From Turneriella sp. (GTDB taxonomy: Bacteria; Spirochaetota; Leptospiria; Turneriellales; Turneriellaceae), in the NCBI GenBank assembly GCA_965279515.1, contig CBDIID010000003.1, positions 2,240,001 to 2,304,000 on the forward strand: a stretch of DNA of 64,000 nucleotides. The letters are read 5' to 3'. The notes under the pieces are model-generated. The model did no database searches and had not been told where the DNA came from. It saw nothing but the letters and a program-made list of their open reading frames with translations. Both the position numbers and the translations under genes were made by a program. Below are positions 1,604 to 27,239 of this stretch, piece after piece (the first letter of the stretch is position 1; the number at the start of each line of letters is the position of its first letter).

Positions 1604-2569
1604 ATGGCGCGCCGCAAGCAGCGTAAAGAGACCGCCGTCTTTATCGTCAACCCACAGGCGGGGGGCGGCAAATCAGATAAGCAGCTCAAGCAGTTGCTTG
1701 CGGATATCGAAGCGATTTACGGCAACGCAAAAATACAGTTCACCGAGCGCAAACTGCATGCGACAGAACTCGCGCGCGGTGCGGTAGAAGCAGGTACCGA
1801 ACTGATCGTTGCCGTGGGCGGCGACGGCACCATCAGCGAAGTGGCAGCGGGTTTTTTCGACGCGAAGGGCAAGGCCCTGAAACCGATAAAACAGGCGCCT
1901 GCATTGGGAATACTCCCTGCCGGTTCAGGCAGCGACTATGCCAAGACGATTGGCATTCCCCGTTCATCGGCGATTGCTTTACAGATTTTGCAAACAGGCC
2001 ACACACGCACCGTCGATGCCGGGCTCGTTGAGTTTATTTCCACCAGCGGAGAAAAAACAAAACGCATCTTTATCAATATCGCCGATATCGGTATCGGCGG
2101 CGAGGTGATCGATATTCTCGAACGCCAGGGTAAACGGCTCGGTGCATTTTTGTCATACCAGATAGCGACACTGCGCGGCCTCATCGGTTACAAGAATAAA
2201 CACCTGAATATCGTACTCGACAAAAAACAGAAATTCGACGGCACGTATAATGGTGTGATCGTCGCGCTCGGGCAATACTTTGGCAGCGGCATGAAGATTG
2301 CGCCCAATGCGATTCCCGACGACGGCCTCTTTGATGTCGTGATGCTCGGCGAAATGAGCAAAATCGAAATGGTCGCCAAGATGCAGAAGCTGCGCAATGG
2401 TACGCACATTTTTGAAAAGAACATCACTGTACACCGTGCGAAACACGTCAGCATACAATCAGATACCCAGGCGCTTCTGGATTGCGACGGTGAAATGCCG
2501 GGTGAAGCCCCCGCCGAATTTACTATTCTGCCCGGCGCTATAAAAGTTGTGGTTCCGCCGCCGGCTTAA
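1604..2569 (+). CDS. Diacylglycerol/lipid kinase family protein (YegS/BmrU-like)
   Basis: NPxAG, GGDGT, PAGSGSD and DGE motifs. Confidence 0.9.
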   Translation: MARRKQRKETAVFIVNPQAGGGKSDKQLKQLLADIEAIYGNAKIQFTERKLHATELARGAVEAGTELIVAVGGDGTISEVAAGFFDAKGKALKPIKQAPALGILPAGSGSDYAKTIGIPRSSAIALQILQTGHTRTVDAGLVEFISTSGEKTKRIFINIADIGIGGEVIDILERQGKRLGAFLSYQIATLRGLIGYKNKHLNIVLDKKQKFDGTYNGVIVALGQYFGSGMKIAPNAIPDDGLFDVVMLGEMSKIEMVAKMQKLRNGTHIFEKNITVHRAKHVSIQSDTQALLDCDGEMPGEAPAEFTILPGAIKVVVPPPA

Positions 2570-7962: not shown

Positions 7963-8703
7963 ATGTCAGCCACCGCAAAAAAATCCGGACGCCTGCCTGA
8001 AGCCAAGACACGCGAGGCTATTCTCAGGGCTGCCATCCATGAGTTTGCCGAGCGCGGCTTTGCCGGTGCCCGCACCGAAAACATCGCCAAATCGGCGGAA
8101 GTCAATAAGGCGATGCTGCACTATTATTACCACGACAAAGAGACCCTCTACAATGCGGTGCTCGACAGCCTCTACGGTTCATTTCTCGAAGCCGATGATC
8201 TCATCGAAAAAATCGCGAATGCGCCGCTGAACTCCGTACAGCATATACATATCTTTCTGAAGGTCATCATCGCCAAACACGGTGATCCCCGTAACCGCTC
8301 TTTCCGTTGCATTCTGGCATGGGAGCTGGCAGCCGGGCAGAATAACTTAAAACGCGTCGCGCAAAAATACCTGGTACCCCGCATGGTGCATCTCGCCGAA
8401 GTGATCGAGAAGGGCATCAAAGACGGAGAACTCGAATGTAAGAATCCGACCCTGGCCGTTTACAGTATGATTTCCCAGGTTGTGTTCTATTACATGCACC
8501 ATGAGACCTATACCGGTAGCGCAATCTACGACGACCTTTACGGAGATGTAACGCCCGGGTTTCTACTCGATTTTCTGCTGCAGAACTTTATCGCTGCATA
8601 TGCATGTGACCGCAAAATTGCCTACAAGCTGCCCGCGGATATTGAAAAAATCGCCGCAGAGCTGGCCGTGAAAATGACCACACACCCGCTGATTCAGGCA
8701 TAA
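7963..8703 (+). CDS. TetR/AcrR family transcriptional regulator
   Basis: ILRAAIHEFAERGF...IAKSAEVNKAMLHYYY HTH. Confidence 0.93.
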   Translation: MSATAKKSGRLPEAKTREAILRAAIHEFAERGFAGARTENIAKSAEVNKAMLHYYYHDKETLYNAVLDSLYGSFLEADDLIEKIANAPLNSVQHIHIFLKVIIAKHGDPRNRSFRCILAWELAAGQNNLKRVAQKYLVPRMVHLAEVIEKGIKDGELECKNPTLAVYSMISQVVFYYMHHETYTGSAIYDDLYGDVTPGFLLDFLLQNFIAAYACDRKIAYKLPADIEKIAAELAVKMTTHPLIQA

Positions 8704-11157: not shown

Positions 11158-12432
11158 TTATCGGCTGGCGACAGGGCGACGCGCCGCAGGCACCGGTAGT
11201 GAAAAAATCTCGATGGGATTGGGAATTCCCTTGAGCTCTTTGGCGCCATGCGGCTCGAGGCGGATTCTCAGCAAACGCGCCAGATCGGCACTGATCAGGA
11301 CATTCTTGCCGAGCTCAGCACAGAGCGCGGCAACCCGGCTCGCGGTATTGACCGCCGCACCGATCGCCGTGAAATCGAGGCGGTCGTTCGAGCCGATATT
11401 GCCATACTGTATCAGGCCATAATGCAGGCCGATACCGTGCTCCAGGGGGATTTTCCCCTCGGATACGCGCCGCTCGTTGAGCTTTTTCAGTGCGCGGCCG
11501 GCGGCATTCGCCGCGATCAGCGACTGGTATTTCACCTGCCGCTCTTTGCCCTCGCGCGCGCTGAAGATGACCAGGAGTCCGTCTCCCAGGAATTTAAGCA
11601 CTTCGCCGCCATACTCGCGCACCACGGGAATAATAGTCTCATAGTAGGTGTTTAAGACCTCGATAATTTCTTCGGGCTGCATGATCGAACTCATCGCCGA
11701 AAAACCGCGGATGTCTGAAAACCACACAACCGACTCGAAATTTTCCATGTCACCGCGCTGGATACGCCCCGCCAATACCTGTGGCCCGGTGATTTCGCCG
11801 AGATAGAGGCGCAGCAAACTATCGAGCAGTTCATCTTTCAGGCGCGCCTCGAGTGCCAGCGTAAAGAGTCCCGTCAGGCGCTTCAGGTCAGTCATCGCCG
11901 CGGCATTGAATCCGCCTTTTTTGCGTGTCGCGAAGCTGATAAAACCCTCGATCTTCGCCTTGAAGTAAACCGGAAGTGCCAGGTAGTCGGTGCCGTCGAG
12001 CTCGTGCAGGTCTTTGAGAATCGGGTATTTAAATTTCTTCTGGCCCCGTAGGATTTTTTCGCGCACGGTGCGACCATGGAGAATGACCGGCGCCATCGGC
12101 GATTCGCGGAACGCCGGTGTCTCGATGTTTACACGCAATATGCGGATGTGATTTACGTAACCGTTTTTCAGTTTGATCTGGCGCACATCCTGGATACCGG
12201 TGCCCGGCGGCGGCAGCGGTATGTTATCGACATCTGACCATACCAGTGAAATCGCACCGAACTGCGGGTGCAAAGAACGGCTGGCGAAATTGGCGCGGAA
12301 AATCTGGTAACCCGCGCGGTTGAGAAAACCGGTGAAGGCGCCGAAAAATTCGACCGCCGATGCTTCTTTTCCGGATTTGCGCGCGAGCCAGTCGCCAAAT
12401 TCAAAAATCAGATTCTTCTGCTTTTCAGCCAT
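11158..12432 (-). CDS. Class III adenylate cyclase with GAF-like N-terminus
   Basis: FSDIRGFS, KFLGDG, DFTAIG..VNTASR; Lys/Asp specificity pair indicates ATP. Confidence 0.9.
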   Translation of the reverse strand: MAEKQKNLIFEFGDWLARKSGKEASAVEFFGAFTGFLNRAGYQIFRANFASRSLHPQFGAISLVWSDVDNIPLPPPGTGIQDVRQIKLKNGYVNHIRILRVNIETPAFRESPMAPVILHGRTVREKILRGQKKFKYPILKDLHELDGTDYLALPVYFKAKIEGFISFATRKKGGFNAAAMTDLKRLTGLFTLALEARLKDELLDSLLRLYLGEITGPQVLAGRIQRGDMENFESVVWFSDIRGFSAMSSIMQPEEIIEVLNTYYETIIPVVREYGGEVLKFLGDGLLVIFSAREGKERQVKYQSLIAANAAGRALKKLNERRVSEGKIPLEHGIGLHYGLIQYGNIGSNDRLDFTAIGAAVNTASRVAALCAELGKNVLISADLARLLRIRLEPHGAKELKGIPNPIEIFSLPVPAARRPVASR

Positions 12433-12996: not shown

Positions 12997-14520
12997 ATGA
13001 AGTTAAAAAGCATTGCCTTATTGGCAAGTTTAACAGTCTTCGCTGCTGCAGTTTCTGCCGCGCCGAAGAAAGCCCCGGCAAAGCCAGTGGCCGCTAAGGT
13101 AGACCCAAAAGTGGCTAAAGCTGAAGCAGAGGCAAAAGCTAAGGCGGAAGCAGAAGCAAAAGCCAAGGCTGAAGCGGCGAAGGCGCCCGAAGGCCCGCCG
13201 GACAAAGCGTCATGGTTCAATGTTGGTGGTAATCTCGTACAAGGTTACACTTATAACCCGCAACATCCGTCAGACGGATATAACGGTACATTGACCTGGA
13301 CAGACCGCGCGAATGAGTATCAGCTCAATCAGGCGTGGATGTACTTCGAGATTCCCACAGACACAAGCAAAAAAGATTTTGACTTTGGTCTGCGCGTGGA
13401 TACTATGTTCGGTTCCAGCTACCGTTGGGCAACCAGCGCCGGTTTTGAAGACAAACTGTTCAAAACAAATACCGGTAACGGCTCGAGCGTAGCAAGCAAC
13501 CAATATGGCTTGGCAATTCCCCAAGCATACGTTGATATGGCTTACAAGTCGCTGAAACTGCGCGTGGGTCACATCATATCGCCTGTAGGTTTTTTTACGG
13601 TGGATACAACACAGAACGTGTTTAATACCATCCCCTACACGTATGCTTACGGTGAGCCTTTCACGCACTGGGGTGCATTTCTGTATTGGACTGCCAGTGA
13701 TAAGCTGACCCTTATGGGTGGTGCAACACGCGGTGGAGATAACCTCGATGGCGCAGGTGTTGGCTCGAAAGTTCCCGGCTTCCTTGGAACGCTGACGTAC
13801 GTCTTCGACAACAAAGCAACCTTTGACTGGGTTGTTCACGTAAGTAAGGAATACAACTACCACAGCTCAACCACGAGCACAAACCCGGCTCAGAGTTATG
13901 CTTTGGGTTCGTACAACCCTGATGACAGTCTCTACAGCTGGAGGTACTTTCAGACGCTCGTCTATAAGCGCCCACTTACCTCAACGCTGCAGCTGGTTGT
14001 TCAGTCTGACTTCGGAATTCAAAAAGTGGCAGACATGAAGTCCGCTCTGGATGCAACAAATCCGCAGAAAGACAAAGACGTTACAGCAATGTGGTACGGT
14101 GCGAACGTGTACCTGATACACCAGACACTGCAAACGCTGCAACTCGCGGTTAACTTTGAATGGTTCCGTGACAATAACGGTGTTCGCGTAGGTAACGTGC
14201 TCCCCACATACTCTGCGGCAACAACAGGTGTGCGTGGTATGGGTTCGAACTATCTCGCCGGCGGCCGTCTGAATTACGTGGGTAACTTCTTCCAGGTTAC
14301 ATTCGGTCCAAAATGGCAACCACAGAAGAACTTCTTCGTTCGTCTGAATGGTCGTTATGACTACTTCGACGGAACAGCGTTGAATGCAACGACTGCAGCA
14401 ACACTCGCTGCTTCCACGGATGCTGCGACACGAGCTACAGATCCTGCCGCATTACCGTTTGGGAACGGAGCGAAAAAAGATCAGTTCGTAATTGGCTTAG
14501 ACGCAGCTCTCCTCTTCTAA
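12997..14520 (+). CDS. Outer-membrane beta-barrel porin (DUF1597/BBP2-like)
   Basis: Signal peptide, AEAKAK low-complexity linker, NEYQLNQAW, PQAY and EPFTHWG motifs, terminal Phe; strong AAGGAG RBS. Confidence 0.8.
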   Translation: MKLKSIALLASLTVFAAAVSAAPKKAPAKPVAAKVDPKVAKAEAEAKAKAEAEAKAKAEAAKAPEGPPDKASWFNVGGNLVQGYTYNPQHPSDGYNGTLTWTDRANEYQLNQAWMYFEIPTDTSKKDFDFGLRVDTMFGSSYRWATSAGFEDKLFKTNTGNGSSVASNQYGLAIPQAYVDMAYKSLKLRVGHIISPVGFFTVDTTQNVFNTIPYTYAYGEPFTHWGAFLYWTASDKLTLMGGATRGGDNLDGAGVGSKVPGFLGTLTYVFDNKATFDWVVHVSKEYNYHSSTTSTNPAQSYALGSYNPDDSLYSWRYFQTLVYKRPLTSTLQLVVQSDFGIQKVADMKSALDATNPQKDKDVTAMWYGANVYLIHQTLQTLQLAVNFEWFRDNNGVRVGNVLPTYSAATTGVRGMGSNYLAGGRLNYVGNFFQVTFGPKWQPQKNFFVRLNGRYDYFDGTALNATTAATLAASTDAATRATDPAALPFGNGAKKDQFVIGLDAALLF

Positions 14521-14571: not shown

Positions 14572-17500
14572 CTAGCGCTTTCGCTTTTTTTTCTTCCACT
14601 TCGACTTACCTTCGTTGGCGCCTTCATAGACCAGGCGCGGCGCAGTCTCGGCTGTCGCCTCGTGATCCCTGATATCGAAGTAATCCGTTTTGCCGGCATG
14701 CGAGCCCGCAGTGGGCGCCGTGGGATTCTCGTCTTTTACGATCAAAAGGTAGAGGCATGGTAAGACAGTCAGAATCAGCACCAATGCCGCAAACAGACCG
14801 CCGACGACGACCGTGGCAAGCGGTCGCTGCACGTCTGAACCCACCCCCGTTGCCAGCGTCGCGGGGATTAATCCCAGAAGCGCCAGCGTCATCGTCATGA
14901 GGCGGGGCCTCAGCTGCACAATCGCCGCGTGTTCGACGGCTTCCATGACGCTCATGTTCAGGTTTGACCTCAGGATCAGGTTTGTTCGCGAAACGAAGAG
15001 GACTCCCCCCATCGTCGCAATACCGAACAACGAGATAAATCCCACCCCGGCCGAGATGTTGAAGTAATAATCGCGGACGACGAGCGCCATGAGGCCGCCG
15101 ACCAGCGACAGCGGAATGCAGGCCAGCGCCACCATCACGTAACGCAGGCGTTTGTAGAGGCCATACAGCAGCGCAAAGATGATAAAGATCGTCACCGGAA
15201 TCGCTACCGCCAACTGCTTACCGACGCGCGCGAGGTTCTCATAGTTGCCGCCGTATTCGAGGCTGTAGTCCTCGGGCAATTTTACCTGCGCGGCAACCTT
15301 GTCCTGTAACTCTTTCACGAAACCACCCTGGTCGCGGCCGCGGATATTCGTGCGCACTGTGATGGCGCGCTTACCTTCTTGCCTGAAAATCATCGTTGGC
15401 CCATCGATGATGGAAATATCGGCAAGCTGCGCCAGCGGCACGCGTTCTCCGGTGGGAGCGAAAACCGGCAGGGCCTGCAGCGCCTTGACGCTCTTGCGGT
15501 ATTCATAGGGATACCGCACAACGATGCCGAAGCGCCATGGCCCTTCATACAGCGTCGATATCCGCTGGGCACCGATACCCCGCTCTATGACGCTCTGGAT
15601 CGTGCTGATATTGATGCCGTAGCGTCCGGCAACTTCGCGCTTGATCTTGATCGTCAGTTGCGGCGAGTCGGCTTCCTGTTCGAGACCATATTCCGAAGCC
15701 CCCGGAATCTGACTGAGGATATCGAGGATTTCATTGGCTTTTTGCCGGGCGATCTTGAGATCGGGCCCATAGACAAACACCGCCAATTCAGCAATGGTAC
15801 CGTTAATCGCCTCCTGCATGTTATCCATAATCGGCTGCGAAAAGCTCCAGCGCACCGAGGGAAACTCGTGTTCCATATCCTTGATAATGCGGATGAGCAG
15901 ATCCTGTTTTGTTATTTTCTCTTCCCACTTCGCGTAATCGTGCAGCGACATCGTGATTTCGAGGCGATTGGGCGGCAGCGGGTCGGTACCCGAATCGTTG
16001 CGTCCGAGCTGCGCCACGGAGTTGGCGATCATGGTATTCTTCGCCAGGACTTCCTGAATCTTCGGCAACTGCTTGTTTGCGGACTGCAAAGAAACACCTA
16101 CCGGGAAATATCCCCTAAGTGTCAGGTTGCCTTCGTCGAGCTCGGGCAAAAATTCAGACCCGATCTTCAGCGTACCGAATATCGTCAGGGCGAGAACGGC
16201 GCCGAATGCGATGGCGACGACCTTTTTGTAGCGGGCCAGCAAATAACGTACCACACGATCGTACTGTTTTTCTATCCAGCCGTATACCGGGTTGTGCCAT
16301 TCGATTTTCTCCTTGCTGTCGGATTCCCAGTATTTCCGGTAAATCATCGCCATTAACACGGGCACTACTGTCATGGCAAAAACGAGCGATCCGAGAATCG
16401 CGTAAGAAATCGTAAACGCCATCGGTTTAAAGAGCCGTCCCTCGATACGCTCAAACGAGAAGATGGGAATATAGGCGAGGATAATAATGAGCATCGAAAA
16501 GACGATCTCCATCCCCACTTCCTTGGTGCCGTTCAGCGTATACTGGCCGATATTCTGCGTGCGGTTGTCTTTTCGGTCACGGTAAAGCCGCGTGATGTTC
16601 TCGGCCATAACGACGACGCCGTCGACGATGATACCGAAGTCAATCGCGCCCAGCGATAAGAGGTTCGCCGAAAGCCCCGTCATCCGCATGAGAATAAAAG
16701 CGCAACAGAGCGAGAACGGTATCGTCAACACCACCACCATCGCGGTGCGCACCGAACCGATGAAGAACACCAGAATCAAGGTCACAATCGTCACACCCTC
16801 TATCAGGGTTTTGCTGATCGTATTCAAGGTATACTTGACGAGATCGCCCCGGTCGACCATGACCTTGACCTGCATGCCATCCGGCATGTATTTCTCATTG
16901 ATTTCTTTGGTCTTCGCGCGCAGTTTTTCTCCGGTAGTATTGGGGTCACACCAGCGCCGCATGGCCGTGTTCCCCTGGACTCCCGAGGGGACGCTGAACA
17001 GCGCTTCGCCGGCGGATTTATCCTGCGTGAAATAGTTCACAACCCCTTGCGGTATCAGCGGCGAAACTTCGACCGAGGCCAGGTCTTTAACGAAGACCGG
17101 TACGCCGCGTTCGGTTTTCACAAAAATATTTTCGATATCCTTGAGATTGCGGATAGCGCCCAGCGAACGGATCGCAAACCCCTGGTCGCCCTGGCGCAGA
17201 ATATTGCCGCCGCTGTTGAGATTATTATTCTGAATGGCGTTGACGACTTCTTCGAGATTGGTATTGTATTGAACCATCCGCTCCGGGGTCGTGATTACGT
17301 GGTACTGTTTTTCCAGGCCGCCGAATGTCACAACATCGGCAACGCAAGGCACCGATAGAAGTTTCGGCATGACTACCCAGTCCTGCACCGTGCGCACTTC
17401 CATCGGCGTATGGTTTTTTCTGCTCTCGACGATGTAACGGAAAATCTCGCCCGAAGGTGAACTCATCGGCGCAAGTTCCGGTTCCACTTCGGGGGGAATC

Positions 17501-17862
17501 TGCGCTTCCTTGACTTTTTCCATCAGACGTATGCGCGCGAAATAGTCGTCGGTACCTTCTTCGAAGACGAATTGGAATGTCACAAGGCCATTGATCGTCC
17601 GCGAACGCCTGACGCGCACATTGGGCGTATTATTTGTGACGCGCTCAATGGGCAGTGTCACACGCTCTTCAACCTCGACGGCGGCGCGCCCCGGAAACGC
17701 CGCAACCATACGTACCTGCGTATCGGCAATATCCGAATACGCCTCTTTCTGGATGCCGACCCACGACCAGATTCCCAGCGCTACGATGAGACCGGCGAGA
17801 CCGAGGGTCGGGAGTTTGTTCTTGAGGGCGAACTCCACCGCCCGAAAAATAATCTTATCCAT
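14572..17862 (-). CDS. CzcA/CusA-family heavy-metal efflux RND permease (copy 2)
   Basis: About 1096 aa; [46 protein letters not shown] at 17862 preceded by AAGGAG. Confidence 0.95.
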
Positions 17863-18005: not shown

Positions 18006-18446
18006 TTAGATGGATCTTACCGGAGGAGGAATCGGATACCGGCTTGGGATATCAGATTGGGCAAAATAATGAAAATCATCGTCGGGATGGATGACACTCA
18101 GGAAAAAACCGGAAGGTTTCAGGACCGCAGAGGTGACCGTCTGCAGAAAAAAATCGCGAAAATGTTCCTGAAAACCGAATCGCAGAAGGCTGCCACGCTT
18201 ATTCGGATGCGCGAGTTTTTGGGCGACTTCACCCGCAGTTTCCCGCACGCCGTGCTCCGATGCCAGCCCTCCGCCTGCAGCATGCAGTTCGGGTGCCTTC
18301 TGGATATGACCGTAGCCGAAAGTTCCCGGCGGCTGCACGCCTCCGGCGACGGCAAATCCGGAGACGGCATAGAATAAAAGGAAGAGCACCGCGGGGATTT
18401 TTCTCCGCGGGGAAAATTCAGAAACTGCTTTCGAATCGGATAACAA
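18006..18446 (-). CDS. Putative leader/arrest peptide ORF 2 (146 aa; signal peptide; C-terminal SRYPIPPP)
   Basis: In-frame TTG 1 nt after the czcA copy 1 stop; aligns with 24800-25246 (DS..VS..PR, ELHAA, G[VI]RE, SRYPIPPP). Confidence 0.75.
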   Translation of the reverse strand: MLSDSKAVSEFSPRRKIPAVLFLLFYAVSGFAVAGGVQPPGTFGYGHIQKAPELHAAGGGLASEHGVRETAGEVAQKLAHPNKRGSLLRFGFQEHFRDFFLQTVTSAVLKPSGFFLSVIHPDDDFHYFAQSDIPSRYPIPPPVRSI

Positions 18447-18447
18447 G

Positions 18448-21400
18448 CTACCTCTTCTTCTTACGTTTCTTCCACTTCGACTTACCTTCGTTGGCGCCCT
18501 CGTAGACCAGCCGCGGCGGTGCCGCCGATTCCGCTGCATCTTTCGCCGCAAAATAGTCGATCGGCGATCCACCACCCGAAGACCCGGTCGATGGCGTCTT
18601 CTTTTCATCTCTGACGACGAGCAGGTAGAGGCAGGGCAGCACGGTAAGCACCAAGAGCATTGCCGAAGCGAGACCACCGACGATGACCGTTGCCAGCGGG
18701 CGCTGCACGTCTGAACCCACACCGTGGGCCAGCGTCGCGGGGATTAACCCCAGAAGCGCCAGGAGAATCGTCATCAGCATCGGCCGCAGCTGCACCTGCG
18801 CGGCTTTTTCGACCGCTTCAAACGTGCTCATGGTCAGGTTATTCGCGAGAATATGGTTCGTGCGCGAGACGAAGAGAACCCCCGACATCGTCGCAATACC
18901 GAACAGCGAGATAAACCCCACACCCGATGACACATTGAAATAATAATCGCGCATCACGAGGGCCATCATACCACCCACAAGCGAGAGAGGTATACAGGCC
19001 AAAGCAACCAGGACGAAACGGATATTTTTGAACAGCCCATAGAGCAGGCCGAAAATGATGAGGATCGTCGCCGGTATCGCAATCGCCAGCTGCTTACCCA
19101 CACGCGCAAGGTTTTCATAGTTACCACCATACTGCAGCGTATAGCCCTCGGGCATTTTTATCTGCGCATCGACCTTTTTTTGCAGCTCGGCGACAAAGGA
19201 GCCCTGGTCACGGCCGCGAATATTCGCACGTACTGTAATAGCGCGCTTGCCCTCTTGCCTGAAGATCATCGTCGGTCCATCGACAATGTCAATGTCGGCC
19301 AGCTGCGCCAGCGGAATACGTTCGCCAAGCGGTGAGAAAACCGGCAATGACTTCAACGCTTTGATGCTTTTTCTGTATTCATATGGAAAACGCACCACGA
19401 TACCGAAACGCCACGGGCCTTCGTACAGGGTGGATATCCTCTGCGCACCAATACCTTTCTCGATGAGGCTTTGAATGGTACTGACGTTGATGGCATAACG
19501 CGCGGCGACCTCGCGCTTGATCTTAATCGTCAGCTGCGGCGAATCGGCTTCCTGCTCGAGGCCGAATTCCGAGGCACCCTGGATCTTACGCATGATTTCC
19601 AGAATCTCGCTCGCTTTTTGCCGCGCGATCTTCAGGTCGGGACCGTAGACGAATACGGCCATATCGGCAATCGTACCCATGATCGCTTCGGACATGTTGT
19701 CCATAATCGGCTGCGAGAAACTCCAGCGGATCGACGGGAACTCGTGTTCGACATCTTTGATGATGCGGATCAACAAATCGTCCTTAGTAATTTTTTCATC
19801 CCATTTGCTATAGTCATGGAGTGCCATCGTGATTTCGAGACGGTTGGGCGGCAGCGGGTCAGTGCCCGAATCGTTGCGGCCGAGCTGCGCCACGGCATTC
19901 GCAATCATGGTGTTCTTTGCCAGTACCTCCTGGATTTTCGGCAACATCTTATTTGCAGACTGCAACGAAACACCAACCGGGAAATATCCCCTGAGCGTCA
20001 GGTTGCCCTCGTCGAGTTCGGGTAAAAATTCAGAACCGATGCGCATCCCGCCGAAAGTAATTAAGGCCAGCACGACACCAAAGGAAATATAGACGACCTT
20101 TTTATAACGTGCGAGCAAAAAACGCATGAGCTTGTCATAACGTACTTCGACCCAGGCATAGACCGGGTTATGCCATTCGATTTTTTCGTTCGAATCGGAT
20201 TCCCAGTATTTTTTGTAGATCATCGACATGAGGACAGGCATGATCGTCATCGCAAAGAGCAGAGACCCCAGAATGGCGTATGAAATCGTGAACGCCATCG
20301 GCTTGAACAGTCGGCCCTCGACGCGTTGGAATGAAAAGATCGGGATATAGGCCAGAATGATGATGAGAATCGAGAACACAATCTCCATCCCCACTTCTTT
20401 ACTGCTATTGAGCGTGTACTGGTTGATGTTCTGGCTGCGGCTAGCGCTTTTATCGCGGTAGCTGCGCATGATGTTCTCGGCCATGATCACGACACCATCG
20501 ACAATGATACCGAAATCGATAGCCCCCAGCGACAACAGGTTCGCCGACAAGCCGGTCATGCGCATGAGAATAAAGGCAAAGAGCAGCGAAAACGGAATCG
20601 TCAATACCACGACCATCGCCGTGCGCACTGAGCCGATAAAAAAGATCAGAATCAGGGTTACGACCGTCACGCCTTCGATCAACGTTGTACCGATCGTGCG
20701 CAGTGTATAGTTGACGAGGTCGGCCCTGTCGATCATGGGCTTCACCTGCATGCCGTCGGGCATATACTGTTCGTTAATTTCTTTCGTTTTAGCGCGCAGG
20801 TTGTCCCCGGTCGTATTGGGGTCGCACCAGCGCCGCATCGCGGTGTTTCCCTGGACGCCCGATGGAACCTTAAAGAGCGCCTCGCCCGCTGATTTATCCT
20901 GCGTAAAATAATTGATGATACCCTGTGGAATCAGCGGCGAAACTTCGACCGAGGCGAGATCCTTAACGAAAACCGGCACGCCCTTATCGACCTTGACGAC
21001 AATATTCTCAATATCTTTGATCGTGCGGATAGCCCCCAGTGAGCGAATAGCAAACCCCTGGTCCCCCTGGCGCAGAATGTTACCGCCGGTGTTCAGGTTA
21101 TTTTTCTGGATGGCTTCGACAACTTCATCGAGATTCGTGTTATACTGAACGAGCTTTTCCGGCGTCGTGATCGCATGGTACTGTTTCGCAACGCCGCCAA
21201 AGGTTACGACGTCGGCAACGCAGGGAACGCTGAGCAGTTTCGGCATCACAATCCAGTCCTGCACGGTACGCACTTCCATCGGCGTGTGATTTTTTTTCGA
21301 TTCGACTATATAGCGGAAAATTTCGCCTGAAGGTGAACTCATGGGCGCAAGTTCGGGCACGACCTCTGGCGGAATCTCCGCCTCTTTCACCTTTTCCATC

Positions 21401-21738
21401 AGCCTGATGCGGGCAAAATAGTCGTCTGTACCTTCCTCAAAGACAAACTGAAAAGTGACGAGGCCGTTGATCGTGCGCGAACGGCGTACGCGCACCTGTG
21501 GTGTATTGTTCGTCACGCGCTCGATGGGCAATGTGACGCGCTCTTCGACTTCAACGGCGGCCCGCCCGGGAAAAGCGGCAACGAGACGCACCTGCGTATC
21601 GGCGATGTCCGAGTAGGCTTCTTTCTGAATGCCGACCCACGACCAGATACCGAGCGCGATAATGAGACCAGCCAGTCCCAGGGTCGGCAGTTTGTTTTTT
21701 AGGGCGAACTCGACCGCCCGGAAAATTATTTTATCCAT
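18448..21738 (-). CDS. CzcA/CusA-family heavy-metal efflux RND permease (copy 1)
   Basis: 1096 aa; same RND-HME motifs; highly similar to copy 2. Confidence 0.95.
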
Positions 21739-21741
21739 AGT

Positions 21742-22701
21742 TTAGAAACCGACGGATAAGCCCTTGAGCAGCATGACGCCTTCCGTCACGACCGTATCGC
21801 CCTTCTTCAGCCCTTGCAGAATCTCGACGTATTCGTCGTTGGAGTTTCCAATCACGACGGTTTTTTTCCGGAACGTATCTTTCGCTTCTTCGACAAAAAC
21901 ATAGTTTTGACTTTCGACGGTAAAAATCGAAGTGAAGGGTAGCACCATAGGTGCTTTTTGGTCGTCGATGAATTCGACCTTGGCGAACATGCCGGGTTTG
22001 AACTTGCCATTTTCATTCGGGAAAATCACACGCACTTTTACAGTCCGCGTCGCCGGGTCGACGTTGTCACCCACGGCCTGCACCTTTCCTTTCATTTTCT
22101 TATCGGGGAAAGAATTGAAAATAATGTTCACGGCTTTACCGGCGCGGCAGGTGTCTAACCTGCTTTCGCTGATGTCAGCAATCATCCAGACGATGTTCGA
22201 GCCATAGTTGTTGAGGTCAGAGGGATTCACCCCTGCGGCGCGCAGCTTACCTTCCGATTCGGCGACCTGGGCCCCCGAGTTGCCGGCTTCGGTCTCGGCC
22301 TCGATGATGTCACGCTCGGTGGCAACCTGCATCGAGTACATGTCTTTCACGCGTTTGAGATTTTTCGAAGCACGCGAAGAGGCGTTGCGCGCCTGGCGGT
22401 ACGTGGCATACGCCGTGTTGAGATCGGCAGATTCGAAGAGCACGATTTTGCCCCCACTCGAAACCGAACGGCCGACGGTTGCAACCACGCGCGCCGGCGC
22501 CTGAATCTGTATGAATTCCTTGCCGCTGCCGAAGGGCCGCGTTTCAATGCGGGCACGCCCTTGGGCGCCTTCCGGGAAAAAGATCACTTCTCCCTTCTCG
22601 CGGATTTCAGGCGCCACATAGACCGTCGGCGGCTTTGCTTTCGGCCCGCAGGCAACAAGAACCAGACTCAAAAATACAGAATAAGACAGTATCGTCTTCA
22701 T
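21742..22701 (-). CDS. RND membrane-fusion protein (CzcB-like), lipoprotein
   Basis: Lipobox LVAC; VDPATRTVKVR and KPGMFA motifs; AAGGAG RBS (alternative in-frame start at 22734). Confidence 0.92.
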   Translation of the reverse strand: MKTILSYSVFLSLVLVACGPKAKPPTVYVAPEIREKGEVIFFPEGAQGRARIETRPFGSGKEFIQIQAPARVVATVGRSVSSGGKIVLFESADLNTAYATYRQARNASSRASKNLKRVKDMYSMQVATERDIIEAETEAGNSGAQVAESEGKLRAAGVNPSDLNNYGSNIVWMIADISESRLDTCRAGKAVNIIFNSFPDKKMKGKVQAVGDNVDPATRTVKVRVIFPNENGKFKPGMFAKVEFIDDQKAPMVLPFTSIFTVESQNYVFVEEAKDTFRKKTVVIGNSNDEYVEILQGLKKGDTVVTEGVMLLKGLSVGF

Positions 22702-22748
22702 TTTATTCTCCTTAATAGAAGTATGTTTTTTCATGATTATTCCTTTGT

Positions 22749-23312
22749 TTAACGTGGAAAAGTGAACAGGTAGCCGGCCTGAAAAATCAAGACCGGGTTC
22801 TTCATTTCATCCGACATGGCACGCCCCACCCCGCCCTGGAAGAAAAATCCGTCCATGAACAGTTCATAGGCGCCACCGATGTAACCGCTGGCCTGCGAGA
22901 CGCCGGTCTTGTCGTCAGGCAATGCCGGATCGAGCGCAAACAGCGGGTTGCGCTTCATATAGCCCCCGACAAAAGACAGGCTGTGGCGGATGCGATCGCC
23001 GTTAAACAGCGAGAAACCGACATCACCCTGAAAGCCCATAAAATTGCTGCCGTAAAACATGCCCGATCCCCTGAGGATAAAGCGCCACAGATGAAGCTGC
23101 GCATGCACATTGAGCCCCGAAGGCAAGCCAACGGTCGGCCCGATGGCAAAAAACGAATTTGTCAGCAGGTTACGGTCGATGGCCTCGTCGGCGTCTTTAT
23201 ACGCTTGGGCGAATTTATCCGTCTTCGCTTCGCTGTCCTTTGCCTGGGCAAACAGCACTCCGCCTGACAAAAATGCGCAAACCAACAATATACCAGGTTT
23301 GAAAGTTCTCAT
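22749..23312 (-). CDS. Small exported protein, probable beta-barrel OMP
   Basis: Signal peptide; Gly/aromatic alternating strands; C-terminal AGYLFTF. Confidence 0.6.
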   Translation of the reverse strand: MRTFKPGILLVCAFLSGGVLFAQAKDSEAKTDKFAQAYKDADEAIDRNLLTNSFFAIGPTVGLPSGLNVHAQLHLWRFILRGSGMFYGSNFMGFQGDVGFSLFNGDRIRHSLSFVGGYMKRNPLFALDPALPDDKTGVSQASGYIGGAYELFMDGFFFQGGVGRAMSDEMKNPVLIFQAGYLFTFPR

Positions 23313-23313
23313 A

Positions 23314-24759
23314 TTATTTCACCTCCGCGGCATTGTTGTTCGCCGGTACGGTTTGCAGGAAGATGATGTCTTTCCCGATCGAGTAGTTGATGTTCTCGAG
23401 GGCTTCGGTGCGCTGCGTTTTAAGGTCGATCAGCTGCACGATGCTGTTGCGGTAAGTCTCAAAGAAGTCTGCAAGTTCGATGACGGAGATATAACGTTTC
23501 TGGTAACTCGCCACCATCACCTGGATCAACTCGCGGAAATCCTGGACATGGCCGCCCTTGAATTCCTGGTAAATCTTGTCTTTTTCTTTCGCCTTAATCA
23601 GCGAAGCCGCGAGCTCACCTTCGAGCCTCATACGTTCGTTCATGAGCTCGCGTTTTTTTGCTGCGATCGCCTTCTTGGCCGATTCGATATTCCCCTGGTT
23701 GCGGTCGAAGAGCGGCACATTCACCTGCGCAGTGAGACCGAAGTAGTTGGGCTGATACGTGTTTGCGCGGTTAAAAACCGGCCCAAATGCCAGGTCGGGA
23801 ATCGCATTCGCCTCTTGCAGTTCGAGGTTCGCTGTCTCGTACTTGAGGTTCAGCATCGCGGTTTTGAGATCGGGCCTATGCGTCTCCGCATACTCAACGA
23901 GTTGCTTTATCTCGAGGCTGTTTGCAGCCGCATTCTCGAGCAATTTTTCGTCGACGAGCGGCACCAGTTGGTGCTCGGCAAGTTCAGGCCGGTTCATCAG
24001 CACGCGTAAATTCACTTCTTTCAGGCGCACATTCATCATGATGTTCGCGCGCTCATTGCGCAGAAAATAACTTAGCGCCTTGAGACGCAGGTACTCCGCT
24101 TTAGTGATCGCGCGGCGAGACAATGCCACTTCGGCGCCCTTCACAGTTCTGCCGAGAGCTTCGATCGTCTGGTCATAATACATGACGCTCTCGCGCATAT
24201 AATGGAGGGCGAAAAAAGTATTGCGCAGTTCAAACTTCAGCGCGCGTAAAACATTAAAGAACTCATTTTCCGTCAGCGCCTTGTTGATTTCCGCAACCTT
24301 GATCCGCTTATCGATCTTGCCGCCCATGAGAAAGAGCTGCTGTATCTGGATTACCTGGCTGCCGTTTTCGGTAGCATCGAGAAATTGCGCCGTCTTATGG
24401 CTGTAAATGCTGGTTTCGAGAAACACGCTGGGGTTTGCATAAAGCCCCGCCTGCATGACAAGCGCGCGTTTCGCCTCGATCTGAAATTTTGCCGCAAGGA
24501 GCAGCAGGTTTCTTTCGACGAATGATCGTTCGGCTTCTTCCAGCGAAAGTCTATAGACTTTCAGATCACTCGCCGCGAGCGTCGGCGAAGTGATTGGGTT
24601 CGCAACGATAGGCTCCGGTGTCTGCGACGCCGGTTTGGTCGCGGACACAGGCTCGGCGGACTTAATGAGCTCCGCCTCTTGTTTTTCCGGAATATCGCCA
24701 GCCTGCGCATACAGCGATGCAACCAAAACAAGAAAAAAAGATATAGATACTTTAAACAC
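23314..24759 (-). CDS. TolC/CzcC-family outer-membrane efflux protein
   Basis: RPDLK and VPLFDRNQGNI motifs; signal peptide; GTG start with GGAGG. Confidence 0.93.
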   Translation of the reverse strand: MFKVSISFFLVLVASLYAQAGDIPEKQEAELIKSAEPVSATKPASQTPEPIVANPITSPTLAASDLKVYRLSLEEAERSFVERNLLLLAAKFQIEAKRALVMQAGLYANPSVFLETSIYSHKTAQFLDATENGSQVIQIQQLFLMGGKIDKRIKVAEINKALTENEFFNVLRALKFELRNTFFALHYMRESVMYYDQTIEALGRTVKGAEVALSRRAITKAEYLRLKALSYFLRNERANIMMNVRLKEVNLRVLMNRPELAEHQLVPLVDEKLLENAAANSLEIKQLVEYAETHRPDLKTAMLNLKYETANLELQEANAIPDLAFGPVFNRANTYQPNYFGLTAQVNVPLFDRNQGNIESAKKAIAAKKRELMNERMRLEGELAASLIKAKEKDKIYQEFKGGHVQDFRELIQVMVASYQKRYISVIELADFFETYRNSIVQLIDLKTQRTEALENINYSIGKDIIFLQTVPANNNAAEVK

Positions 24760-24799
24760 ATTCCCTCCACGCCTGCCTGAGCCGGCGAATCTTTATCGT

Positions 24800-25246
24800 T
24801 TATGCGAGAGAGAGGGCAGGTGGAGGTATTGGGTAGCGGGAATTAAGGTGCGTATGCGCAAGTGAAATAAGATTAGCGTTCAGGCAGGCATCACCCAGAA
24901 GCAGCAGCGGTTTGTTGAGTTTCTGGGCTGCGAAGGCCATGGGAAAGAGTTCCCACAGGGAAGATCCGGATGTATTGTGACGAGGCGGAGTGAAGCGGTT
25001 GTTACCCTGTTCGATCCGTTGGATTTCTTCGGGTGAAGATTCACGGATACCCTGCGCCGGTGACGTAAAGTCACGCGCAGCATGCAACTCAAGCGTACTG
25101 ATGTGCAGCGCTGAGCTTTTCACAACTTTGGGTGACAGGTCTTGCGTTGCAATGCTGAAGCTGCAAAGCACCAGAACTGATGCGATCAGTACAGAGAAAA
25201 CGCTTCTTGGTGCCGAGACAGATACGTTCATAATGCTATCAACCAA
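24800..25246 (-). CDS. Putative leader/arrest peptide ORF 1 (148 aa; signal peptide; C-terminal SRYPIPPP)
   Basis: Hydrophobic N-terminus; directly upstream of tolC; paralogue at 18006-18446. Confidence 0.78.
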   Translation of the reverse strand: MVDSIMNVSVSAPRSVFSVLIASVLVLCSFSIATQDLSPKVVKSSALHISTLELHAARDFTSPAQGIRESSPEEIQRIEQGNNRFTPPRHNTSGSSLWELFPMAFAAQKLNKPLLLLGDACLNANLISLAHTHLNSRYPIPPPALSLA

Positions 25247-25295
25247 ATCGAATCCGTCGTTCTTGGTAGATGGCTCAACGGGTCAATGAATATGG

Positions 25296-26084
25296 CTATG
25301 CCTGTCGCCAGGATGGCGTCTTTTTATACAAGAAAGCGCCGACGCCTTCACGGCCTTCATCGCTCATGCGCCGCCGGGCGGCCAGATCGATCAGATGCGC
25401 CGGCAGGTCAGCAGGCCATTTGCCACGGCCAGAATAAATATCCAGCAGGTTTTTGATCTCGGCCTGGGCCCCAGGCGCCCCTCTTTTCAGGTCGGTAATC
25501 ATTGCATTGAGAAACTCAAAACATGCCATCTTTGTACCGACATAATTCACGAGCCCCATTTCCTTGGCATCCCAGAACTGGAAAATCTCACCGGATAGGA
25601 AGAACCTCCTAGCGTTCGTCAGGCCGATGCGCGATACGACATAAGGCGTAATCACGCTGGGGATGAGCCCTAAGGTTACTTCAGCAAAGGCGAAGGTGGA
25701 AGATTCGAATGCGACAGCGATATCGGCGGCGGCCAACAGGCCAATGCCGGCCCCCGAAATATGCCCTTGCGCAATGGCAATGACGGGTATGCCGCAGGTG
25801 GCAATCGAAGTAAGCAGCTCTGAGAGGGGCTTAATGTCTTTTATCTGCTGCTGTTTCGTGAGCCCCGCAGTCTCTTCGATATGTTTCATATCGGCGCCGC
25901 CGCAGAACGATTTGCCTTCGCCGCGCAGCACGATCACCCGGGTCTCGGGGGATTTTGCCGCCCCCTTAAATATGCCTGTCAACTCAGCGATCATCTCTTC
26001 TGTCAAAGAGTTGGCTTTTTCGGGATGATTCAGGCTGACATGCAGAACACCGGCATCAAACTTGGTCAGAATAAATGAGCTCAT
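25296..26084 (-). CDS. Enoyl-CoA hydratase/isomerase (methylglutaconyl-CoA hydratase-like)
   Basis: SFCGGAD, GAGIGL, EVTLGLIP, EGREGVGAF. Confidence 0.9.
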   Translation of the reverse strand: MSSFILTKFDAGVLHVSLNHPEKANSLTEEMIAELTGIFKGAAKSPETRVIVLRGEGKSFCGGADMKHIEETAGLTKQQQIKDIKPLSELLTSIATCGIPVIAIAQGHISGAGIGLLAAADIAVAFESSTFAFAEVTLGLIPSVITPYVVSRIGLTNARRFFLSGEIFQFWDAKEMGLVNYVGTKMACFEFLNAMITDLKRGAPGAQAEIKNLLDIYSGRGKWPADLPAHLIDLAARRRMSDEGREGVGAFLYKKTPSWRQA

Positions 26085-26144
26085 GGAACCTAAAACCCCA
26101 TGCCCCGGAAACGGAAAAGCGGAAAAAAGATCGCAGGCTTTAAG

Positions 26145-27239
26145 CTATAATTTCAGGCTCGCGGCGGCGGTCACAATATGTTCCTGCGGACGAACAGCGT
26201 CGGAAAAACGGTAAATACCATCGGCGGCAAAAAAATTACGGTACTCCAGGCGGAGCACATAGGCCTCCTGCGGCTGAAAATTCAGATTCCAGGTAAATCC
26301 TCCCACCTGAAAACCATTCGCAGTGCCCGTCGCCACCATCACTTGTTTCGGATCGATAAAATATTCGAGGCGGATTGCGGTATTCCACTGCGGATTCAAA
26401 ACATAACGCGCGTACGCGGCGCCGGTGTACCATTGCCGGTACGATTCAAGGCCTGCGGTTTTTTGTACACCCACGTCGCAGGTAAGGGCAAATTGCCACG
26501 AAGCTGAAAGAGAAAACTGCAAAATTAAATTACTGTAAAACCGGTATTGCGGCGTATTGTCGTCGGGCGCGACGTTGCCGGCAAAAGAATTGTGAATAAT
26601 TTTCAATTGCGGTGAGAATTCATAGCTCACCTGCGTGCCTAAACTTTTATCGCGGTTCGTCGGCGTGATGACCTGCCAGCCGTTCAGTATGTGCAGTTGT
26701 AAAATCAGTTTTTGCGTCGCTTCGTAAGTCAGCCGCACACCCGTCGCATAATAAGGCACGTTGTCGAGATTTAAGGCACGCGAATAATTCCAGTTGGTGT
26801 GGGATATCCACGATTCATAACCGATATGGCCGAAAAAGATTCCGGCATCGAGCCAGAGCTTATCAAAAAATTTATAACCGACAAAAGCCTCCTGTAGATT
26901 TCGCGTCGAGAGCTGGTTCGAATATTTTTCCGTGTTCGTTTCGTTCTGGTAGTTTGCATTCACGGAAGTTCCGAACTGTAGCGCGAGGCGGCCACGGATG
27001 TGCTTTTCATCCACCGCCGCTTCAACATGCGCTAGATTGATATTAAATTCGCGGTCGCGGGCAATCTGCGTGAGATATTGCCGGTCACTGCTGGCTGGCC
27101 GGTAGACGCTCGATGCATAATACGTGTCGATGAAAACACCGGGCCTTACCAGGGGTTTTTCCGCCGCTTCGGTAACAGCATAAACGCCCTGTGCGGTTAG
27201 ACACAGGGCTGTCAGAACACATGTTGAAACTTTAGTCAC
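26145..27239 (-). CDS. Outer-membrane beta-barrel porin (DUF1597/BBP2-like)
   Basis: DTYY, EFNINLA, DAGIFFGHIGYES...NWNYSR...PYY motifs. Confidence 0.82.
   Translation of the reverse strand: MTKVSTCVLTALCLTAQGVYAVTEAAEKPLVRPGVFIDTYYASSVYRPASSDRQYLTQIARDREFNINLAHVEAAVDEKHIRGRLALQFGTSVNANYQNETNTEKYSNQLSTRNLQEAFVGYKFFDKLWLDAGIFFGHIGYESWISHTNWNYSRALNLDNVPYYATGVRLTYEATQKLILQLHILNGWQVITPTNRDKSLGTQVSYEFSPQLKIIHNSFAGNVAPDDNTPQYRFYSNLILQFSLSASWQFALTCDVGVQKTAGLESYRQWYTGAAYARYVLNPQWNTAIRLEYFIDPKQVMVATGTANGFQVGGFTWNLNFQPQEAYVLRLEYRNFFAADGIYRFSDAVRPQEHIVTAAASLKL

Follow-up and report, generated by a model that had tools for sequence, protein, structure and literature searches.

The stretch of DNA analysed here, 64,000 nucleotides of Turneriella sp. 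(contig CBDIID010000003.1, positions 2,240,001 to 2,304,000; hereafter the window), carries a heavy-metal RND efflux operon that is preceded by a small open reading frame (ORF), small ORF 1, whose product ends with the polyproline motif PIPPP a few residues before the stop codon. On the same strand, and after a spacer of 40 nt between the small ORF 1 stop and a GUG start codon, follows the gene of an outer-membrane factor (OMF). The layout matches that of exported, metal-sensing upstream ORFs (uORFs) that stall the ribosome on polyproline, and for this reason we read small ORF 1, tentatively, as a stalling regulatory uORF of the CutF/CruR type, by which the OMF gene's Shine-Dalgarno (SD) sequence would be unmasked at the head of a CzcCBA-like operon. 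All coordinates are window positions, with genes and mRNA on the minus strand unless another locus is named. The protein-coding features of the junction are these:

24800..25231, minus strand: small ORF 1, 143 aa in the ORF list, from ATG 25231 to UAA 24802-24800, ending in SRYPIPPPALSLA before the stop
25139..25210, minus strand: N-terminal hydrophobic segment, residues 8-31, a helix in the AlphaFold2 model with a predicted local distance difference test (pLDDT) of 82-89 in this block
25010..25051, minus strand: best-conserved internal block G-I-R-E-S-S-P-E-E-I-Q-R-I-E, residues 61-74, from alignments A2 and A3
24818..24832, minus strand: PIPPP codons CCA AUA CCU CCA CCU, the C-terminal polyproline motif and putative stall site, from the family alignment
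23314..24759, minus strand: OMF gene, CzcC/TolC-like, 481 aa, GUG start at 24759-24757 (Pfam OEP, E = 1.2e-27)

A sequence-only reading of this DNA had called small ORF 1 leader 1 and the OMF gene tolC. The genes downstream of this tolC encode an adaptor and a CusA/CzcA pump, which makes it the CzcC-like gene with which the structural part of a heavy-metal RND operon begins; it also has a weak NCBIfam match to IhpA, a subunit of a divalent metal exporter. Neither is small ORF 1 the short leader that its former name implied. It spans 143 aa, or 148 aa from an alternative TTG start at 25246, it begins with a signal or anchor helix and its homologues align along the full length of the ORF. In particular, the segment of residues 8-31 would serve, on the model, as Sec signal peptide or as membrane anchor; the hydrophobic stretch is followed by a small-residue motif resembling A-x-Q-D, which is conserved in alignment A2. 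A reading as lipoprotein was rejected, as a Cys after the hydrophobic segment is not conserved. Outside the N-terminal helix the AlphaFold2 model is poorly structured (pLDDT 59, predicted template-modelling score 0.21). Within the internal block, R63, E64, E68, E69, Q71, R72 and E74 are invariant in A2, while in the wider alignment A3 Q71 is invariant and E64 nearly so; the block may possibly serve as a periplasmic sensing or ligand motif. Further conserved blocks of the main clade (A2) are ELH, RESSPEEIQRIEQ, KPLLL and NANLISLAH.

Homologues of small ORF 1 were found in four other genomes of the genus, in addition to a paralogue in the window, and a word-indexed profile search of 5.8 billion proteins added 12 more. 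When 1.84 billion representatives were searched exhaustively with a profile, 9 matched at E <= 1e-10, all of them members of the family itself. Neither Pfam nor NCBIfam holds a family matching small ORF 1, even at E <= 10, and the only named source among the family proteins is a hypothetical protein of NCBI "Turneriella sp.". At the DNA level, a search with alignment A2 found no relatives in metagenome or genome contig sets, so that comparison of this kind is limited to six loci: the window junction (L001), its orthologues at OMF junctions (L002-L005) and the paralogue upstream of the second pump gene of the window (L006). A feature search of the ESM Atlas returned SecM (PF06558) as the sole named family among the 30 nearest clusters (score 0.94, 147 shared features), a weak lead only, as the recognition value of the query lies under the reliability mark.

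What holds this family together is its C-terminal end. The examined set comprises 23 rows, that is, the 6 genomic loci with 12 and 5 proteins from the two profile searches, two rows being exact duplicates of loci, and all 23 end with PIPPP followed by 2-6 residues, at protein lengths of 117-167 aa. Of eight invariant columns in the 15-sequence alignment A3, five are P-I-P-P-P, and the same proportion (5/8) is found in A1. To judge from these alignments, the PPP is not an accident. A +1 frameshift at CCU-C was considered for the motif and rejected: the +1 frame stops 7 nt past the normal stop and adds nothing. Moreover, the family occurs in 5 of 14 genus genomes, the same five that have the OMF orthologue, and at all five junctions the small ORF lies upstream of the OMF gene on the same strand, 36-168 nt from its start. 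Four of these spacers measure 36-54 nt and that of L003 168 nt, while in L006 the distance to the pump gene is 143 nt. Between the same genomes the OMF proteins are 74-82% identical and the small ORFs 23-36%. A fast-evolving body with a frozen C-terminal motif, beside a slowly evolving neighbour, is the pattern that would be expected, on sequence grounds, of a cis-acting regulatory ORF. In genome G012, the OMF orthologue (L019, G012:C106:1039-5286) contains one in-frame TAA within the match, which could mean that the gene is split or has become a pseudogene, or that the sequence is in error at this point; the accompanying small ORF (L005) is intact. A second OMF gene of this genome (L022), 33% identical, has no PPP-tailed ORF upstream.

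The same alignments can be read at the level of the protein. Specifically, small ORF 1 might be an ordinary exported accessory protein, a CzcI-like periplasmic or anchored factor, with RYPIPPP acting as a protein motif, for example a docking tail, and the complementarity between ORF tail and SD incidental. We regard this as unlikely, with real points on its side. The blocks conserved in the main clade beyond PIPPP would be natural in a working protein, and small proteins of the CzcI type are known upstream of czcCBA, being described in PMC9973294 without a C-terminal proline motif. Such a protein accounts poorly for a body that has diverged so far while the OMF has not, for the lack of a confident fold in AlphaFold2 and for a motif fixed at 2-6 residues from the stop in every row.

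Codon choice within the motif is also at odds with a purely protein-level role. Across the six loci, CCG is used in 3 of the 24 Pro codons of PIPPP, as against a genome share of 45% (binomial P about 0.001), and CCU and CCA together in 12 of 24, as against 23% (P about 0.003, or 0.005 relative to neighbouring genes), P values that overstate the case, as the six loci are related and neither the codon counts nor the pairing counts given below are independent. The Pro codons of the window's PIPPP, CCU and CCA, are the two rarest of the genome. In E. coli, CCG is described as the fastest-decoded Pro codon and the preferred one in Pro-Pro pairs, with CCA tuning the pausing (PMC8129111). The codon bias of the motif is directed to slow decoding and to a G-free tract, and the depletion of CCG at synonymous sites is a point that an accessory protein leaves aside. 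The motif is part of a longer tract of biased composition:

24790..24880, minus strand: C-rich, G-poor mRNA stretch over the ORF tail, a C>G bubble with 41% C and 9-13% G by sliding 78-nt composition

This bubble covers the last ~80 nt of small ORF 1, with C at 32-43% and G at 8-21% in the tails of the orthologues. It fits both an anti-SD role and a loading site for Rho; the genes of EF-P and Rho are both present in the organism.

Consequently, a second alternative deserves mention, namely a CruR-type stalling uORF with a transcriptional output. The C-rich tail and the spacer would form a Rho loading site, which a ribosome on PIPPP would block, and release of the stall would lead to termination before the OMF gene. 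The C>G bubble in window and orthologues, the CCG depletion that keeps the motif tract G-poor and the presence of a Rho gene are all consistent with it, as is CruR itself, which is reported to act through Rho with an arrest motif three residues short of its C-terminal end (PMC9426467); the 168- and 143-nt spacers of L003 and L006 are comparable to the 162 nt given for cruR-bfrG (PMC9973294). We nevertheless hold Rho control to be improbable. The rut site and the termination point are putative, the C-richness is due in part to the Pro and Leu/Ser codons themselves, four of five OMF junctions have short spacers, and a conserved pairing between tail and SD would be superfluous.

This pairing was the core of the sequence-only reading, according to which the Pro codons of the tail form a helix that buries the SD of the OMF gene, with a ribosome stalled on PPP covering the anti-SD arm and freeing the ribosome-binding site. 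The elements involved, with the tracts that compete for them, are as follows:

24815..24826, minus strand: proposed anti-SD arm CCUCCACCUGCC, complementarity verified, pairing probability <=0.40 in a 111-nt piece and ~0 in longer contexts
24764..24780, minus strand: SD region UCAGGCAGGCGUGGAGG, with the core GGAGG at 24768-24764, 4 nt before the start codon
24831..24843, minus strand: competing anti-SD tract A, AUUCCCGCUACCC, the SD partner in the 111-nt minimum-free-energy (MFE) structure, with pair probabilities of 0.54-0.62
24880..24891, minus strand: competing tract B, AUGCCUGCCUGA, paired over 12 bp with 24780-24769, the segment immediately 5' of the SD core, in the MFE structures with 90 and 150 nt of context

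As a matter of sequence, the claim is exact. On the minus-strand mRNA, CCUCCACCUGCC (24826-24815) is complementary to GGCAGGCGUGGAGG (24777-24764) over 12 bp with a 2-nt bulge: CCUCCAC (24826-24820) pairs with GUGGAGG (24770-24764) over 7 bp and CUGCC (24819-24815) with GGCAG (24777-24773) over 5 bp, with GC bulged between them. The arm is CCU CCA CCU GCC, the codons of P136-P137-P138-A139, and the GGAGG core does lie 4 nt before the GUG, in a context, GUGGAGGGAWU, that is common to the window, L002 and L005. The bare helix has an energy of -18.2 kcal/mol. As a structure, it is not the fold predicted. The folding check that had been proposed, on the piece 24740-24850 (111 nt), gives an MFE of -24.0 kcal/mol in which the SD is indeed paired, with 24843-24831 rather than with the proposed arm; forcing the proposed helix yields -20.9 kcal/mol, a penalty of 3.1, and its core pair 24766:24824 has a probability of 0.40 and its arm pair 24774:24818 one of 0.12. 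In longer contexts, AUGCCUGCCUGA (24891-24880) and UCAGGCAGGCGU (24780-24769) form a perfect 12-bp helix, and the core of the SD finds its partner either in a run of U within the OMF gene or in a UUUCCC far upstream. No context folded leaves this core predicted as single-stranded, so that the outcome named beforehand as refuting the reading, an unpaired SD, did not arise. Folding z-scores against dinucleotide shuffles are not significant (-0.65 for 111 nt, +0.27 for 201 nt), and the 206 genes of the genome with a GGAGG SD have a mean pairing probability of 0.72, with 16.5% of them reaching 0.95; the value of the OMF gene is 0.957.

The orthologous junctions behave differently from the window in the model. 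For each junction, the probability of pairing between the SD core and the PIPPP region, and the cost of opening the core in the free mRNA and under a ribosome on PPP, are:

L001 (window): pairing probability 0.0; free 7.4 kcal/mol, ribosome on PPP 7.4 kcal/mol
L002: pairing probability 0.99; free 9.8 kcal/mol, ribosome on PPP 7.7 kcal/mol
L003: pairing probability 0.82; free 10.6 kcal/mol, ribosome on PPP 4.9 kcal/mol
L004: pairing probability 0.49; free 9.3 kcal/mol, ribosome on PPP 5.1 kcal/mol
L005: pairing probability 0.97; free 9.0 kcal/mol, ribosome on PPP 6.2 kcal/mol

A ribosome on PPP thus lowers the cost by 2.1, 5.7, 4.2 and 2.8 kcal/mol in L002-L005, that is, in four of five orthologous junctions. 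In L004 the partner of the SD is mainly the tail after PPP with the stop codon, and in L003 the helix spans 168 nt. Such a drop is rare elsewhere in the genome. With the ribosome placed six codons before the upstream stop, a drop of at least 2 kcal/mol occurs in 4 of 82 same-strand gene pairs of the same genome with a GGAGG or GGGGG SD (the strong-SD controls) and in ~5% of 154 pairs with any SD; tail-SD pairing at four of five orthologous junctions, rare as it is in the controls, speaks against an incidental complementarity beside an accessory protein. RNAalifold on four aligned junctions finds a weak consensus (-6.35 kcal/mol, covariation term -0.38, double changes in 3 of 11 pairs), four sequences being too few for this result to count as covariation support.

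Taken with the invariant motif and its linkage to the OMF gene, these results make a CutF/CruR-type stalling uORF that unmasks the SD of the first gene in a CzcCBA-like heavy-metal RND operon an explanation that we consider quite possible, if short of probable. The analysis shows the gene layout, an invariant PIPPP in its constant position, the rapid divergence of the remaining protein, the heavy-metal character of the pumps, tail-SD pairing as a prediction at four of five orthologous junctions and the scarcity of CCG in the motif; we infer that the protein is exported, that it stalls the ribosome and unmasks the SD, and in which direction and in answer to which cue it regulates. The mechanism would run as follows. 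The N-terminal hydrophobic segment would target the nascent chain to Sec, so that the poorly structured body, with its ELH and RES-PEE-Q-IE blocks, would be in the periplasm while the ribosome decodes PIPPP. A periplasmic cue, most plausibly a divalent metal, would then alter the dwell of the ribosome on PPP despite EF-P. The dwelling ribosome would cover the C-rich tail of the ORF, which in the free mRNA can pair with the SD region of the OMF gene. Initiation at GUG 24759 would then rise and the efflux genes would follow. A bolder version, which we find doubtful, would have independently evolved exported nascent-chain sensors in this genus of the Leptospira class, with no Cys motif and outside DUF2946, control a CzcCBA-type pump through PIPPP stalling, the same 15 nt acting as stall site, anti-SD and G-poor tract and the acidic/His block reading periplasmic metal.

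A number of results weigh against regulated stalling of this kind, and the first of them come from the window itself. The proposed helix all but vanishes (probability ~0.0) once 90 or 150 nt of upstream sequence are folded along with it. The opening cost of the OMF SD core, 7.4 kcal/mol, equals the mean of the 82 strong-SD controls, and a modelled ribosome on PPP leaves it unchanged; even with queued ribosomes added, it stays at 4.5-7.4 kcal/mol. The SD of the window is not freed by the modelled stall because other tracts, including the U-run inside the OMF gene, take over. The paralogue upstream of pump 2 (L006) is likewise without predicted tail-SD pairing. In addition, the protein lacks an obvious sensor: A3 contains no invariant column of Cys or His and there is thus no clear metal site, H50 and H126 being invariant only in the 9-sequence main clade (A2) and the best-conserved block (RES-PEE-Q-IE) being acidic. 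DUF2946 (PF11162), the family of CutF and CruR, has no match at E <= 10 in the 15 members scanned.

Synonymous recoding points in the same direction. The last 20 codons were recoded 100 times each according to genome codon usage at four of the six junctions, and the energies of the tail-SD duplex compare as follows:

L001 (window): null mean -23.6 +/- 2.9 kcal/mol, observed -22.6 kcal/mol
L002: null mean -29.0 kcal/mol, observed -28.8 kcal/mol
L004: null mean -11.7 kcal/mol, observed -13.7 kcal/mol
L005: null mean -20.2 kcal/mol, observed -16.0 kcal/mol

The native codons have no energy advantage in L001, L002 and L005 and a slight one in L004; in the window, 63% of the recodings pair at least as strongly as the native tail. 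The tail-SD complementarity is therefore largely a consequence of PIPPP lying near GGAGGG, since any string of Pro codons pairs well with a G-rich SD. That recoded tails pair as well as the native one, that the folding z-scores are not significant and that SD burial here is average for a strong SD is what the accessory-protein explanation would lead one to expect.

The last of the adverse results concerns the step of termination. In L002-L004 the SD is opened to about the same extent by a ribosome at the stop codon as by one stalled on PPP (in L003, the opening energy of the SD region falls from 10.5 to 4.4 kcal/mol with the terminating and 4.6 kcal/mol with the stalled ribosome), and for this reason the geometry would look alike under plain translational coupling. 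Coupling, in which any ribosome finishing the small ORF melts the structure at the OMF SD and the dwell on PPP is unregulated, would suit this result and the 36-54 nt spacers of four junctions, but we give it little chance, as it does not account for an invariant PIPPP at a fixed distance from the stop or for the bias to slow codons and as such structure is rare in the other gene pairs of the genome (4/82).

The sequence-only reading thus comes out of the analysis divided. What it had observed is real as a fact of sequence and, as a structural claim for the window, does not on these models rise above expectation: the helix it proposed gives way to tracts A and B, and the SD, while paired throughout, is no more buried than in the controls. 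The release of the ribosome-binding site by a stalled ribosome is modelled in L002-L005 (2.1-5.7 kcal/mol) and amounts to 0.0 in the window. Its interpretation as translational attenuation is partly supported, being right in kind, namely a polyproline-tailed upstream ORF coupled to the SD of a metal-efflux gene, for which the invariant PIPPP, the linkage and the precedent of CutF speak; in its details it is wrong or unproven, small ORF 1 being no short leader and the proposed helix not the predicted one.

The remainder of the locus is consistent with metal efflux. Downstream of the OMF gene lie:

22749..23312, minus strand: ORF of 187 aa between the OMF and adaptor genes, from the ORF list, without a known family
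21742..22734, minus strand: periplasmic adaptor, CzcB/CusB-like, 330 aa (Pfam HlyD_D23, E = 2e-25; NCBIfam RND_mfp, 117 bits, over the cut-off)
18448..21738, minus strand: RND pump 1, CusA/CzcA heavy-metal efflux, 1096 aa (TIGR00914, 835 bits, cut-off 701)
18006..18443, minus strand: small ORF 2, the paralogue, ~145 aa, ending in SRYPIPPPVRSI before the stop (E = 3.8e-40 against profile A3; PIPPP codons at 18035-18021)
14572..17862, minus strand: RND pump 2, CusA/CzcA family, 1096 aa (TIGR00914, 835 bits, cut-off 701), ATG 17862 after AAGGAG

The 187-aa ORF, which has no Pfam or NCBIfam match, looks signal-like at its N terminus, is aromatic at its C-terminal end and may encode a small outer-membrane protein. 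Small ORF 2 is 25% identical to small ORF 1 and lies between the two pump genes, 143 nt upstream of pump 2, a pump that comes without its own OMF and adaptor genes; the 143-nt spacer contains a CCGCGG-AAAAC-CCGCGG hairpin. On the upstream side, an enoyl-CoA hydratase gene (25296-26084, minus strand) lies 62 nt upstream of small ORF 1, an order kept in L002 and L005, and beyond it lies a gene for an OmpL-like beta-barrel porin (Pfam BBP2; 26145-27239, minus strand). A consensus scan of 24600-25500, the gap between hydratase gene and small ORF 1 included, found no sigma-70-like promoter, and a terminator scan of the same interval found one terminator-like site, on the opposite strand, at a frequency not above that of shuffles. 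Rfam covariance models gave 0 matches at E <= 1 on both strands of 23000-27000, and a look-up of public sequencing runs returned no RNA run for 24600-25300.

PPP within the last 12 residues is found in 22 of 4178 open frames of the genome, among which other small ORFs stand out. Five of them begin with a hydrophobic, signal-like segment, carry Cys-rich motifs (C..H.K...CPCG) and close with xPPPR(xx):

L014 (G000:C3:1968500-1985500), four Cys-rich PPPR ORFs: 1751-2173, minus strand; 8246-8656, minus strand; 11675-12142, minus strand; 13456-13827, plus strand
L016, fifth Cys-rich PPPR ORF: 1805-2176, minus strand

Their tails include ETPPPRA, QPPPRR and LPPPRRS (C3:1.97-1.98 Mb), and they lie upstream of genes for a TonB-dependent receptor, MbnP/MbnH-like proteins and a di-haem cytochrome c peroxidase. 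Their architecture is CutF/CruR-like, which lends our reading of small ORF 1 some support by context; Pfam does not recognise them. The modelled release of the SD on stalling reaches 3.6 kcal/mol at the TonB-receptor junction and <=1.4 kcal/mol at the other four. Aligned with hhalign, they show no relation to the PIPPP family (probability 0.3%), a further result that does not favour our reading of small ORF 1. In L015 (G000:C3:817500-821000), a 129-aa ORF (379-765, plus strand) ending with EEIPTPPPLS lies 42 nt upstream of a fusion of SulP sulfate permease and carbonic anhydrase; in the model, a ribosome on PPP reduces the opening cost of the SD at this junction from 8.6 to 4.2 kcal/mol. Finally, three paralogous ORFs of ~196 aa (G000:C3:268289-268876, minus strand; 2921847-2922440, plus strand; 3902398-3902994, minus strand) end with E(K)T/L..PWPPP and 5-6 further residues, and in these a signal peptide is not obvious.

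Should the bolder version set out above hold, trans-membrane sensing by polyproline stalling would represent a convergent and recurrent solution in metal homeostasis, extending from copper to efflux of the Zn/Co/Cd type. A sequence-unrelated family with the same architecture, a CzcA-type pump downstream and a host in the spirochaete phylum would untie the mechanism from one family and from Cys-based copper sensing. It would also offer a compact test case (a single invariant motif of five residues, tail and spacer in six natural variants, two copies in one genome) and, as a family without a Pfam or NCBIfam model, it would flag regulators that annotation pipelines miss. If instead the protein acts as an accessory factor, what lies here is an ordinary efflux operon, one of whose genes encodes an unnamed accessory protein.

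Among known systems, the short leader attenuators (ermCL, cat, and the Pro-codon leaders mgtL and mgtP) share the principle of a paused upstream ribosome that remodels the downstream mRNA. These leaders comprise roughly 8-30 codons, are cytoplasmic and respond to drugs or to charged tRNA, whereas small ORF 1 encodes 143 aa with a putative export signal and with conserved N-terminal and central blocks. To our knowledge, the only exported metal-sensing proline-stalling uORFs studied experimentally are CutF and CruR, both copper-linked DUF2946 proteins of Pseudomonadota. A literature search pairing PIPPP with ribosome stalling found nothing. The family of small ORF 1 was set apart from CutF and DUF2946 by means of the Pfam profile PF11162 rather than by direct comparison with the CutF sequence; this profile has no genome match over the cut-off and none in 301 sampled genomes of the phylum.

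Comparable in kind are the monitoring substrates SecM-secA, MifM-yidC2 and VemP-secDF2 and those of the RAPP type, which are described as exported or membrane-inserted chains that arrest a few codons before the stop, with the stalled ribosome unmasking a downstream SD in the SecM/MifM/VemP type (10.1101/2025.02.05.636593). Small ORF 1 stands outside the group of SecM, MifM, VemP, ApdA and ApdP, as its downstream genes encode metal-efflux components and not Sec or YidC machinery; moreover, its motif is plain polyproline instead of RAGP or RAPP, and it has no sequence similarity to the SecM type. CzcI of Cupriavidus metallidurans, a small protein encoded upstream of czcCBA, is set apart from small ORF 1 by its description only (PMC9973294).

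CruR (Bp2923) of Bordetella pertussis resembles small ORF 1 in several respects: it is a protein of ~145 aa, predicted to be poorly structured, at the head of a metal-homeostasis operon, and towards its 3' end the uORF is rich in C and lacks structure (PMC9426467). According to the same source, CruR controls a TonB-dependent transporter, an importer, through Rho-dependent termination. It differs in its RAPP motif, with a CXXC 45 residues upstream, in an action reported to be independent of signal peptide and EF-P (PMC9426467) and in its membership of DUF2946, to which small ORF 1, by the Pfam test, does not belong.

A close counterpart exists in Rhodobacter capsulatus: CutF (cutFOG) is small, is exported through Sec, binds Cu at a CxxxC motif and ends with GPPPRL (10.1101/2025.02.05.636593; PMC9973294). 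According to 10.1101/2025.02.05.636593, CutF depends on its signal peptide, metal motif and PPP as well as on a stem-loop that masks the cutO SD, with EF-P playing a part. Cu bound to the periplasmic part of the nascent chain is described as lengthening the PPP stall against EF-P, and the stalled ribosome as melting the stem-loop over the cutO SD (10.1101/2025.02.05.636593; PMC9973294). Ozturk et al. (2023) defined CutF-like proteins by length, C-terminal PP motif, signal peptide and a gene close downstream in the same orientation, found OEP genes of RND systems to be their commonest downstream neighbours and assigned them mostly to Pseudomonadota and Bacteroidota (PMC9973294); Turneriella, Leptospira and spirochaetes are absent from its three small supplementary files, its large table of CutF-like proteins lying outside the search. 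With fewer than 150 aa, PPP at residues 136-138 of 143 and the OMF gene close downstream on the same strand, small ORF 1 passes the length, motif and neighbour filters; on the signal-peptide filter there is the hydrophobic helix of residues 8-31, a putative signal peptide or anchor. It shares with CutF a PPP few residues before the stop and a place directly upstream of a metal-detoxification gene on the same strand, the SD target of CutF being masked by RNA structure. The differences are equally clear: the family has no CxxxC, CXXC or other invariant Cys/His motif; it carries PIPPP where CutF has GPPP-R; masking would fall to the Pro codons themselves instead of an intergenic stem-loop; and a CzcCBA-type pump takes the place of the multicopper oxidase. 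By analogy, then, the layout would match a mechanism of known kind, of which the family of small ORF 1 would be a sequence-unrelated variant.

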